This document shows, in pieces, positions 253-4,451 of a stretch of 10,229 nt of DNA. The notes below the pieces were generated by a model. It was given only the letters and a program-made list of their open reading frames with translations. It made no database searches and had not been told where the DNA came from. The first letter of the stretch is position 1, and the number at the start of each line of letters is the position of its first letter. This DNA is from a virus (Duplodnaviria; Heunggongvirae; Uroviricota; Caudoviricetes): the IMG/VR virus record IMGVR_UViG_2541047831_000006, one strand, 5' to 3'. Made by a program: the position numbers and the translations under genes.

Positions 253-2714
253 TTAGTGCTTCCCTTCTATTAAGTCTAACCTAGCTTTTATTCTTTCTAT
301 TTCTCTGCGCTGCCATGCTGCCTCGATATAGAATAAGAGATCAGGTCTGACCCCCCATCTAGATCCTGCTGGCGTTATTTCAACGCGCTCAATGATGTCT
401 TCCATTACCATCACTGGATTATCATCCTCATCAACAATGATGCTCCCGTCATTATCAGTCAGCGGCATTTCCCTTTGGCCAGTAATGACGTCATCATATA
501 CTGCGGGATAATCGTCATAGCAAAGAAAGGCATAGCGGCATGTTGTGCTTTCTTCTTCCATGAGTCCGTGAGAAATAAGAACATCACGAAGTTGCTGCGC
601 GATTACACCATGATGTATCCTCGCCCCTTCTTCCCCCTTTATAGCGACAGCGTTCAGCCATTTATAAGCGATATACCTGACGTCACCCCAGGCATCCAGC
701 AATGTTTCGTCAGGAGAGACCGGCTCTGTCTTTAATGTTCCGTCACTGGTAACCACAGGATTGGAGCCAAGATAAACTATCGAGAACCTGTTTCCCGGAC
801 CACCAAGAGCATTTACATTATCAAGATAAGGTTTAACATCTCCGTTCTCAAAAAGATGTTCGAGTGCGTTATATACCGCGCGACGTGGAGTACTGCTTCT
901 GGAACCATGCAACGTTATCATTGCACCATCTGCTGAAGACGTTGTTTCACCGCCGCTAACGATTAATCTCTGAGCGGTAACATCATCAGACGGTACTTTC
1001 TTCGCAATAATGGCGTAATTACCCTCAAGTTTGACTTCCGCGCGAACTTGTCCTGATGTACCTGCATGGACAGTCAGTGACTGGACGGCAACATCATCTG
1101 TGAAATCAACGGGTACAGGAACCGTCCTCACGCCTGACGTCGACATAAAAGTAGGAAGCGTTCTGTTAGGAGTGGCTCCGTAGACAAAATCCCTTGAAAC
1201 AAATTCTTCCTGTTTAATTTTCACCCTGAAACAATACAAATCAGCCGGGTGACCATCGTGAACATAAGGATATTTTCTGTTGTTATCCCCTATGCTCCAT
1301 GGGTTTAGAAAGTCTTCCCCACCGAAAATGTAGTACAGCCAGTTGTCTTTGATACAAACTGAACCAACACCAACCGCAGAGTTAACTATTCCGCCCTGAT
1401 AAATCTGATCAGTAACATTAACCCACTCTACATTATCCAGACTCCACTCATTGACGTTAACTCTGGTCATAAATGTTCTTGGATAGTTTCCTGCATAACG
1501 GTTATCAGGTTCTCCTCCTTCCCACTCACCAAATGCGCGCTCACTGCCAAAAATAATCAGCTCATCGCCAACTTTGGCAAAAGGAAGGTTTGAGTGATGA
1601 ACATTATTTGGGAAGCGAAGAGAATTCCATGATGTACCTAAATCAGAGCTTCTGTGCAATGAACTACCGGGTTGAGTACTTAATGTCCCCCTGGTCGTCA
1701 GATACAGAATGCCATCATAATATTTTACACATGGCTCAGATGCATTCGCCTCATATTCTGCAGGTATGCGTCTGCGAACAAAGCTACCAGGAGAACCGAA
1801 AGCATCAGAGAAATAGAGTATCCCAAGCTCGCGTGGACCAATATCACCATTATGGTAGCCAACAGCAAAACTGTTATCGCTAATCGTCGCAAAACTGTGA
1901 ATCTCAGTAACAGGAGTGCTTCCGTCAACAAAAGAAGGAATAGTTCCAAGACTGGTTTTTCTCCATGGTGACGAGTGAAATGATGTACCAAAACTCCAGT
2001 ATCTACCCTCGTTATTCTGATCCACATCCTGGGTATTTTGCGTCGTAACTGTAAAAGTATTTTTATCAATAACAGTAGTCACCGTCATATTCCCGGTAAC
2101 ACCTGTAACACCAGAGTTTGAGAAGTTGACAAAATCACCAGCAAATAATCCGTGATCAGTAATGCGAATATAAGCGACTTGCTGATTTGCTGCTTTCGTT
2201 ATACCACCATAAACGCGAAGGCTGCGACTCATTGGGCGATCCCACAACTCTGCAACCTGCAGTTTATTTCCGCTCACGGTCCGCGTCTCAATTACAGCAA
2301 AAAGGCGATTTCTGACAACCCCCATACTCATGCAGTGATAGTTAACTGTGGGATAGTTTTCATGTAAATCTGTAAGCCATTCCGGCGTTGTCCAGGTCTT
2401 CCCGTCATCTCCTGAGCGAACCCATGCAACATGGAGGTTATTTACACCATGGCGGTCTCCAGCCATAAAAGGCGCATAGATGACATTGTCATATACAAAC
2501 GTTTTATCCTGCGTCCAGGCGTTGTACCACGGTGTATCTGTAATTTTAAATAACTCTCCCTGGATAAAATCTTCAGAAACATAAAAAAGAGGCTGACCCG
2601 GTATTCTCTCAAATAAAAAACGAGCATTTTTAAATCGACTGACATCTGGAAGAGTTGATACTTTAAAAGTAAGCCCTCGCCCATCTATCTTTTCACCACC
2701 TGTTGCAACAGAAA
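253..2714 (-). pseudogene. Endosialidase (endo-N-acetylneuraminidase) tailspike, 3' portion: catalytic region plus C-terminal intramolecular chaperone domain; separated from its 5' portion by IS911
   Basis: The 737-aa ORF (253..2466) aligns by eye to phage K1F endosialidase (DRHGV..HVSWV.SGDDG.TW.TPEWLTDLH..YPTVNYHCMSMGV, through LGSNPVVTSDG and the IHHGVIAQQLRDV chaperone region). The same frame stays open upstream of the first ATG through 2467..2714 (SVATGGEKIDGRGLTFKVSTLPDVSRFKNARFLFERIPGQPL...), so the ATG at 2466 is internal. The reading frame runs into the IS911 end at 2715. Confidence 0.85.
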
Positions 2715-2744
2715 TGAAGTGGTCAACAAAAACTGGCCACCGAG

Positions 2745-3563
2745 TTAGAGTTTTTTCCAGTATCGATTTTCCGATTCGTTTGGTGGTAACCCACCATTAT
2801 ATTCGTGCGGTCTTAGTGCGCTGTAATATCCAACGATATAGTCCGTTATTGCGTGAGCTGCATCGCTGAAGCTTACATAGCCCGTCGCCGGCACCCATTC
2901 GTTCTTCAGACTCCTGAAGAAGCGCTCCATTGGGCTGTTATCCCAGCAGTTTCCACGCCGACTCATACTCTGCCTGATCCGGTATCTCCACAGTAACTGC
3001 CGGAACTGCCTGCTCGTATAATGACTGCCTTGATCGCTGTGGAACATCACCCCGACGGGCTTACCACGGGTTTCCCATGCCATTTCCAGTGCTTTCATGG
3101 TAAGCCTGCTGTCCGGCGAGAACGACATGGCCCAGCCCACTGGTTTTCTTGCGAACAGGTCGAGAACAACGGCGAGGTACGCCCAGCGCTTACCCGTCCA
3201 GATATAGGTCACATCACCGCACCACACCTGATTTGGCTCGGTCACGGCGAACTGCCGTTCAAGGTAGTTAGGGATAGCAACATGTTCATGACCACCACGT
3301 TTATACCGGTAAGTCGGCTGCTGACAGCTGACCAGCCCCAGCTCTTTCATGAGTCTGCCAGCAAGCCAGCGCCCCATCTGGTAGCCTCTCTGGGTTGCCA
3401 TTGTGGCGATGCTTCTTGCTCCGGCAGAGCCGTGGCTGATGCCATGCAGTTCAAGTACCTGGCTGCGTAATACAGCCCGTCTGCCGTCTGGCTTTTCAGG
3501 ACGGTTTTTCCAGTATTTGTAGCTGCTGCGATGGACCCCGAACACATGGCAGAGAGTGGCCAC
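2745..3563 (-). CDS. IS911 orfB (transposase catalytic part; expressed as OrfAB fusion by programmed -1 frameshift at AAAAAAG, 3635..3641 on minus strand)
   Basis: 272-aa ORF from its first ATG with IS3-family DDE transposase features; the orfB frame is -1 relative to orfA. The true fusion protein begins at the orfA start. Confidence 0.8.
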
Positions 3564-3589
3564 AGGATAACGCGCCCTGAGTTTCCCGA

Positions 3590-3892
3590 TTATCGAGAAC
3601 TGTTCAGGGAGTCTGACATCAAGAGCGCGGTAGCCTTTTTTAATATTTCATTTTCCATTTCAATACGTTGTAGCTTTTTCCTGAGCTCACGGATTTCAAT
3701 TTGTTCCGGGGTAATAGGGGAGGCTTTTGGTGTTTTTCCCTGCCGCTCATCACGTAATTGTTTCACCCATCGCGTCATTGTGGAAAGGCCGACATCCATA
3801 GCGCTGGCTGCATCTGCCACGGTGTAATTCTGGTCAACGACCAGTTGAGCGGATTCGCGTTTAAACTCTGCGCTGAAATTTCTTTTTTTCAT
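3590..3892 (-). CDS. insN: IS911 orfA (100-aa HTH/leucine-zipper regulator; N-terminal part of the OrfAB transposase)
   Basis: Sequence [53 protein letters not shown]... matches IS911 OrfA as I recall it. The ORF track's 112-aa version includes an upstream extension with no obvious support. Confidence 0.8.
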
Positions 3893-3964
3893 TATGGCAC
3901 CTGTGTTGTTCTGAGGTGAGCATATCACCTCTGTTCAGGTGGCCAAATTCAGTAAACCACTTCA

Positions 3965-4451
3965 AAAGTAATTCTGATAGAGCTGATGTATCATCATGAA
4001 CACCATCACCAATAGCCCCCCAACCTCTTACATCATAACTGTCTCTCCATCTTGCTATCTGAAGTTTTGGGTATTTATTCGCTCCATCTGGGTCTTCTAA
4101 TTGCTGCCGTAGTTGATCAGGATCATACTTCAGCACATTCTGGAAATAGAACTGCTGTACGCCATACGCATCGTACACAGCCATAGAATGGCCTTGCACA
4201 GTTACGAACTTGGCAATCCGTCCGTTATATACAGGGTAACCAGCAGCGTTAATGATGATTGGTTGCGAAACAGGAACGTGAGAGCCGTCTTCGTTCTCTA
4301 CATAAACCTGAATCCGGTTTTCAGGATTTACCGGGTCAGTGTCAATTTTACCGATATAAATTTTGCCATTGGCTACGGCTTTAAAAGAACGCGCCATAGT
4401 GAAGAGTTGCGAAGGCATCGATACAATCACATTGGCTGTAATGTCTGTCAT
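3965..4451 (-). pseudogene. Tailspike 5' portion: P22 gp9-like N-terminal head-binding domain followed by the start of the endosialidase region; reading frame runs into IS911
   Basis: N-terminus [11 protein letters not shown]...[21 protein letters not shown]...[10 protein letters not shown]...[13 protein letters not shown]...NVLKYDPDQ closely resembles the P22 tailspike head-binding domain. It then switches to endosialidase-like sequence ([20 protein letters not shown]) before the IS junction at 3964/3965. Start ATG at 4449..4451 with GGAG about 10 nt upstream. Confidence 0.85.

Follow-up and report, generated by a model that had tools for sequence, protein, structure and literature searches.

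How a single endosialidase tailspike gene came to lie in two pieces, and what its interruption meant for the prophage that carries it, are the questions raised by a stretch of DNA of 10,229 nucleotides (nt) held in IMG/VR as record IMGVR_UViG_2541047831_000006. This stretch, referred to below as the window, is an argW-integrated CUS-3-like (P22-like) prophage of Escherichia coli HVH 203 that has shrunk to a remnant of about 10 kilobases (kb). It matches scaffold KE700866.1 of that strain (GCA_000459115.1, E. coli HVH 203 (4-3126218)) with 0 mismatches. The tailspike gene is split by a complete insertion sequence (IS), and this split is confirmed and lies beyond chance. The history favoured here, with a probability of roughly 0.88, is that a large deletion came first, that the IS entered the tailspike gene later, and that the insertion belongs to the neutral decay of a CUS-3-like remnant. 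The features of the split gene are listed by window position, strand and nature, with open reading frame abbreviated to ORF.

253..2714, minus strand: 3′ fragment of the tailspike gene, codons 163-981 and the stop codon
2712..2714, no strand: first copy of the target-site duplication, AAA (TTT on the coding strand, gene nt 485-487)
2715..3964, minus strand: first IS copy (IS1), a complete IS3-family element, IS911-like/'ISEc52', of 1250 base pairs (bp), recognised by its inverted repeats and domains
2745..3563, minus strand: orfB of IS1 (rve/DDE integrase core), from the ORF and a domain match
3590..3892, minus strand: orfA of IS1, 100 amino acids, HTH_Tnp_1, from a domain match
3635..3641, minus strand: programmed -1 frameshift heptamer A AAA AAG of IS1 (IS nt 324-330)
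3861..4451, minus strand: hybrid ORF of 196 amino acids (5′ part of the tailspike gene plus 34 codons of the IS)
3965..3967, no strand: second copy of the target-site duplication, AAA, read from the sequence
3965..4451, minus strand: 5′ fragment of the tailspike gene, codons 1-162

Both tailspike fragments lie on the minus strand, and the element between them occupies exactly 1250 bp bracketed by AAA on either side. In silico removal of 2715..3967 (1253 bp), which takes out the IS and one AAA, yields an ORF of 2946 nt that encodes 981 amino acids and ends in a single terminal stop; the repaired junction reads ...SALSELL/SVATGGEKIDG..., with the stroke at the join. A first-pass annotation, made from the letters of the window, had described a 1250-bp IS flanked by AAA/AAA between two same-strand halves and had claimed that its excision with one AAA rejoins a frame of about 981 codons. 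All of its coordinates and numbers hold, and the deletion-and-translation check that it proposed reveals neither a stop nor a frameshift in the rebuilt frame.

Comparison with related genomes places the repair beyond internal consistency. The repaired window aligns with E. coli PE144 with 0 mismatches over 8876 nt and with S88 with 0 mismatches over 7277 + 349 nt, and the rebuilt ORF does not differ at any nucleotide from the allele in these two strains, where the gene is annotated uninterrupted as 'phage tailspike protein' WP_000129907.1. The exact intact protein of 981 amino acids is recorded on 646 contigs. Distribution searches covered 5,426 complete E. coli genomes, and the gene is uninterrupted in 29 of the 36 that carry an allele at least 99.9% identical. 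The possibility that the two halves are normally separate genes was considered and rejected: they form one continuous gene in related genomes such as CUS-3 (siaK1), S88, APEC O1 and PE144, and a single gene of 2946 nt is found in CUS-3, S88, PE144 and many others. The GenBank ORFs named 'bifunctional tail protein' and 'endo-alpha-sialidase' should accordingly be annotated as halves of one gene. Given the exact anatomy of the IS and the zero-mismatch repair to PE144 and S88, the split is not explicable by chance, and nothing contradicts the insertion itself.

The inserted element has the anatomy of the IS3 family in its length, 1250 bp against a family range of about 1.2-1.5 kb, and in its ends, coding capacity and 3-bp target duplication. 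Its terminal inverted repeats are 36 bp long and imperfect (25 of 36 positions matching), have TG...CA ends and start TGAAGTGG. The product of orfA matches HTH_Tnp_1 (E 6e-14) and that of orfB matches rve (E 1e-31). A slippery A6G site lies at IS nt 324, where a simulated -1 slip gives a predicted OrfAB fusion of 382 amino acids. Both transposase genes are oriented like the tailspike gene. A length of 1250 bp, inverted repeats of about 36 bp, orfA and orfB in 0/-1 phases, the A6G site, an OrfAB of 382 amino acids and the 3-bp duplication are all shared with IS911/ISEc52 of the IS3 group. The element had been called IS911 at first pass, which stands as a statement of kinship within the IS3 family and is doubtful as a name: its identity to the IS911 annotated in phage Sf6 is 94.8%, RefSeq copies of the 'IS911 family' share about 94.5% identity with it, and RefSeq gives to the copies identical to it the name 'IS3-like element ISEc52 family transposase'. 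Judged by these identities, 'IS911-like (ISEc52)' would be the more accurate label.

Elements that transpose by a copy-out-paste-in route do not undergo precise excision as part of transposition. The restored frame therefore proves in silico what the history of the gene was and is unlikely to act as a switch. At the junction between the right inverted repeat and the tailspike gene, where an outward hybrid promoter could have driven the 3′ fragment or the neighbouring gene neuO, no promoter-like site was reported.

The position of the break within the protein can be read from its domain map. On the rebuilt protein, Pfam places the head-binding domain at residues 1-113 (PF09008 Head_binding, E 4e-64), the endosialidase N-terminal extension at 146-212 (PF12218 End_N_terminal), the beta-propeller at 213-662 (PF12217 End_beta_propel, E 1e-233) with a beta-barrel inserted at 324-406 (PF12195 End_beta_barrel), the stalk at 663-817 (PF12219 End_tail_spike) and an intramolecular chaperone at 818-878 (PF13884 Peptidase_S74). 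Among solved structures, those of endoNF (1V0E and 3GVL) align to residues 146-817 and 3GW6 aligns to residues 698-979, and the head-binding domains of the P22 and Sf6 tailspikes align to residues 1 to about 120. The break at codon 162/163 thus falls 17 residues into the N-terminal extension and not exactly at a module boundary. The 5′ fragment holds the P22-type head-binding domain and these first 17 residues, and the 3′ fragment holds the remainder of the extension, the beta-propeller with its beta-barrel, the stalk and the Peptidase_S74 chaperone.

An active endosialidase tailspike needs a continuous frame, and in the window the frame is broken. Upstream of the 3′ fragment, the closest in-frame stop lies within the IS (2797..2799), and the first start codon of the fragment is M245 (2466), which opens an ORF of 737 amino acids that is without the N-terminal extension and 32 propeller residues. 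Since the head-binding part is severed from the catalytic, stalk and chaperone parts and no start precedes M245, the split gene is probably a pseudogene of the CUS-3/K1F endoN-type family. The earlier claim that it can make no functional tailspike would likewise be sound, as far as the domain map allows.

Alignment with the CUS-3 endosialidase tailspike, also proposed at first pass, bears out the family assignment. The CUS-3 protein (siaK1, ABQ88383.1, E. coli RS218) has 981 residues, of which 975 are identical to the rebuilt protein without gaps; its gene occupies the same site between ant and neuO and encodes the same order of domains. The HVH 203 gene differs in its interruption at codon 162/163 and in six substitutions, all at residues 43-121, within or just past the head-binding domain.

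Similarity to other K1 phages (for example the vB_EcoP_ZX5 and Phi05 records) and to a second chromosomal endosialidase type (H64/H65) spans window positions 285..2677. This homology ends at 2677, 37 nt from the IS site, which places the inserted element just upstream, in the direction of the gene, of the point where the head-binding part meets the endosialidase part, a boundary of module exchange.

Whether the split inactivated the prophage depends on a second lesion at the other end of the remnant, the features of which are as follows.

8355..8630, minus strand: last 276 nt of a gp16-family (P22) DNA-ejection gene, cut by the second IS copy, from comparison with S88 and PE144
8631..9880, plus strand: second IS copy (IS2), identical to the first (100% identity) and inverted
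9881..10229, plus strand: right end of the prophage, with the tail of a small ORF cut by the second IS copy, then torI (10029..10229), an excisionase-type gene adjoining attR/dsdC

The second copy lies 4.7 kb from the first. Its left flank is GTT and its right flank CTA; it is without a target duplication because of an associated deletion. It stands in place of 30,139 bp that are present in S88 (positions 10920..41058 of the S88 locus), from the gp16 ejection gene to the small ORF just before torI. In S88 this interval contains all of the ejection, head, portal, terminase, lysis, Q, nin, replication, cII/cro/cI-type and recombination genes. The complete set of virion, lysis, replication and immC genes that marks an inducible phage is consequently not present in the HVH 203 remnant. 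The first-pass annotation had concluded from the split that the prophage can make no functional tailspike. The split would disable the tailspike gene, but the real inactivating lesion of the prophage is the prior deletion of 30,139 bp. The prophage was already dead before the tailspike insertion, and since its virion, lysis and replication genes were already gone, the insertion was without consequence for phage production.

The order of these two events can be deduced from the distribution of their junctions. Both junctions of the second copy occur in two of the 5,426 complete genomes, PE144 and SF-088. PE144 has this copy and the same 30.1-kb deletion with an intact tailspike gene. SF-088, a finished genome, has the copy and the deletion and, in addition, an identical IS at tailspike nt 983, in the opposite orientation and with an ACG/ACG duplication. 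The three remnants thus share the deletion and the junctions of its IS and differ in the tailspike gene, which is intact in PE144 and interrupted at nt 983 in SF-088 and at nt 485-487 in HVH 203. Because PE144 shares the deletion but keeps an intact tailspike gene, the tailspike insertion in HVH 203 appears to be the later event. It is also private to this strain: its junction was found in none of the complete genomes, and the 196-residue hybrid ORF (EQU33855.1) is recorded on one contig only, that of E. coli HVH 203.

Two steps can be proposed from these comparisons. In a common ancestor with PE144 and SF-088, an ISEc52/IS911-type element would have become the scar of the 30.1-kb deletion, most likely when two IS copies in direct orientation recombined or, alternatively, through an IS-adjacent deletion. 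Subsequently, an identical copy would have entered codon 162/163 by ordinary IS3-family transposition, making the AAA duplication; the insertion and the duplication themselves are observed directly. The donor may have been the copy at the deletion or any other identical copy in the genome and, since all four IS copies in the comparison of HVH 203, PE144 and SF-088 are identical, it cannot be named. The most parsimonious history would be a single event at the deletion, after which HVH 203 and SF-088 each recently acquired a tailspike insertion of their own, and the insertion studied here is perhaps best read as further neutral decay.

Other genomes were considered as relatives of this history and rejected. 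The ST131 match MB1159 is not an intermediate, as its IS lies about 470 bp away at a different junction. AH21I008, HM50 and OZ547099 do not carry the second copy either, their IS being located in ant within a full prophage.

Two structural explanations would dispense with a simple insertion. The identical, inverted IS copies flank 3965..8630, an arrangement that could suggest either inversion or recombination between the copies or movement of the pair with the intervening 4.7 kb as a composite transposon. An inversion would exchange the flanks, leaving the duplications at the first copy unmatched and moving the 5′ part of the tailspike gene to the other strand, and neither is seen: the flanks are AAA/AAA, the halves share a strand, and the locus follows PE144 and S88 in its order with 0 mismatches. 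A composite transposon would bring a shared duplication at its outer flanks, which instead read AAA (2712-2714) and CTA (9881-9883), and its supposed cargo is collinear with uninterrupted prophages. Both forms of this explanation are rejected, and what probability they keep is negligible. Hardly better placed is the suggestion that scaffolding or gap-filling put a repeated IS into the tailspike gene by mistake. N gaps lie nearby in the source, which is a draft at scaffold level, and two IS copies that are 100% identical are what gap-filled repeats would look like. A misplacement, however, would not create an exact 3-bp target duplication with base-perfect flanks. An event of this kind is also present in the corresponding remnant of the finished SF-088 genome, and other chromosome-scale assemblies have an identical IS at other sites of this gene. 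An artefact is therefore very improbable.

An explanation of another kind concerns not the event but its cause. In K1 lysogens, loss of the endosialidase might be selected, so that lesions would build up in this gene faster than in the other phage genes and the IS insertion would be one of many convergent knock-outs: a polysialic-acid-degrading enzyme made by leaky or induction-linked expression would harm the capsule on which the pathogen relies, while neuO is kept next door. This proposal draws on the lesions that recur in the gene. Among the 36 complete genomes with an allele at least 99.9% identical, seven have an IS in the tailspike gene, at 4 sites. With other assemblies and one phage record included, at least 12 sites are mapped and at least five kinds of IS are involved, those of the IS3 family including ISEc52 and two further types, in a set that is biased in that many of its sites come from a query detecting only lesions upstream of codon 245. 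The sites, numbered in nt from the ATG, are listed with the kind of IS and the carrier.

nt 24: ISEc12, in ATCC 11775
nt 208-215: IS66-type, in phiv205-1
nt 286-288: ISEc52, in locus L019
nt ~349-358: ISEc52, in locus L014 and 8 similar places
nt 431-433: IS3-family element of 1310 bp, in locus L015
nt 485-487: ISEc52, in the HVH 203 window
nt 511-516: IS2-like, in locus L020
nt 589-595: IS3-family, in locus L018
nt 635-640: ISEc52, in locus L019, a second insertion
nt 943-945: IS3-family, in FY26, NCTC11151 and MS20654
nt 983: ISEc52, in SF-088
nt 1282-1287: IS2-like, in GPEC128-620

Two different nonsense mutations accompany these insertions in other assemblies, Q213* (locus L012) and Y225* (loci L013 and L017). 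In the complete-genome set, which is unbiased, 3-4 independent IS events fall in the 2.9-kb tailspike gene versus 2 in the 14-kb structural block, a difference with a nominal binomial p of about 0.01-0.04. However, IS are about as dense in the adjoining 4.2-kb immI/accessory arm, with insertions in ant (AH21I008 and L018) and at the mnt-clpP junction (FY26 and E10), and the whole tailspike/immI arm has a GC content of 42-45% versus about 50% in the structural block, so that a target bias would account for the excess without selection. The restriction of many sites to lesions before codon 245 also speaks against selection, as does the fact that most carriers keep the gene intact, including the 646 contigs with the exact protein. 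Moreover, the lysis genes are already all missing from the HVH 203 remnant, as is the late-gene activator, and expression of the tailspike gene should be minimal. Because the neighbouring arm is equally dense in IS and is low in GC, regional target bias is the simpler explanation of the excess, and selection for loss of the endosialidase is unlikely.

The reading of deletion first, later insertion and neutral decay is thus retained, and three points weigh against it. Neutrality is assumed, and the frequency of IS in the same gene of other strains leaves some room for selection. The HVH 203 sequence comes from a scaffold-level draft that contains N gaps, and the placement of repeat copies rests on this assembly. 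Finally, no complete genome was found with the IS at just one of the two deletion breakpoints, and the mechanism of the 30-kb deletion rests on two candidate routes.

Further observations concern IS in this region. The density of IS in the tailspike gene and the low-GC immI arm is several-fold above that of the 14-kb structural block. An identical ISEc52 is found in ant of otherwise complete CUS-3-like prophages, namely AH21I008 (locus L007, 9299..11454), HM50 and OZ547099. In locus L018, ant and the tailspike gene are both disrupted.

Decay of this type has been described before. CUS-3-like phages are prone to decay, their tail and coat genes are often pseudogenes, and neuO lies as close as 8 kb to dsdC in decayed members (Connolly et al., PNAS 2022, PMC9659370). 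The decayed argW prophages treated in passages of that paper share with the HVH 203 remnant the argW-dsdC site, the loss of most phage genes, a neuO within about 10 kb of dsdC and tail pseudogenes. These passages name other strains (CE10, SCU-175) and contain neither the IS-bounded deletion of 30,139 bp nor the HVH 203 insertion (PMC9659370). A description of the tailspike insertion or of this deletion was not found in the literature searched, where the papers on ISEc52 dealt only with resistance plasmids and with Cronobacter. More generally, inactivation of prophage genes by IS is commonplace.

The HVH 203 insertion is therefore real, strain-private and an ordinary step in an already published decay in which neuO is retained. 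The domestication pattern suggested at first pass is compatible with the remnant and is indistinguishable from plain decay. By itself the insertion matters little, being one more pseudogenising IS in a decaying remnant of known type, and it can serve as a lineage marker that separates HVH 203 from PE144 and SF-088. One lead alone merits pursuit, the repeated hits by IS on the tailspike gene and the low-GC arm. If the excess reflected selection and not target bias, it would show how a pathogen tames a phage that targets the capsule and yet retains the phage gene that modifies it.

The remaining genes of the remnant retain the CUS-3-like layout. Their order is argW, intS - neuO - tailspike - ant, sar, arc, mnt - ClpP-like - YafO-like and two ORFs - IS2 (the second IS copy) - torI, dsdC. 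The placement yfdC - (tRNA-Arg) - intS - neuO - tailspike - ant is found in the source scaffold (locus L010) and in PE144, and CUS-3 has the same order int - neuO - tailspike - ant. The features of these genes within the window are given below.

1..99, minus strand: 5′ end only of neuO, with the ATG at 99..97 and 13 AAGACTC heptads (4..94)
4552..6202, both strands: intact immI region, with ant (4552..5454, minus), sar RNA (5455..5521, plus), arc (minus) and an mnt-like gene (plus), from the PE144 annotation of identical sequence
6202..6738: ClpP-like protease, accessory gene
6787..7236: YafO-family toxin, accessory gene
7245..7841: ORF of 198 amino acids upstream of the YafO-family toxin, accessory gene
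7987..8337: hypothetical ORF of 116 amino acids, accessory gene

The first-pass annotation had taken neuO to be intact. The window holds only its first 99 nt, and its intactness is not readable from there, base 1 abutting a run of N inside the neuO repeat array of the source scaffold. In that scaffold (locus L010, 12353..13298), 13 heptads are followed by a gap and another 13 heptads. Past the gap, the body of neuO is an open frame with Hexapep similarity; the gap hides the repeat number and hence the phase. The number of heptads sets the phase-variable ON/OFF state of neuO (PMC13001214); there are 60 in PE144 and 47 in SF-088. Promoter-like sites of its own lie at 187..116, and a polar effect of the IS on neuO therefore need not matter.

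The immunity genes had likewise been called intact, which is true of immI (mnt/arc/ant/sar) only, as immC was lost within the 30,139 bp. The P22-type immI module is intact in the remnant despite this loss. Its sar RNA, at 5455..5521 on the plus strand, matches Rfam RF00262 over the full length (83.9 bits) and is antisense to the beginning of ant. From immI to the truncated gp16 gene (6202..8337), the accessory genes are 100% conserved in S88 and PE144 and differ from the CUS-3 reference.

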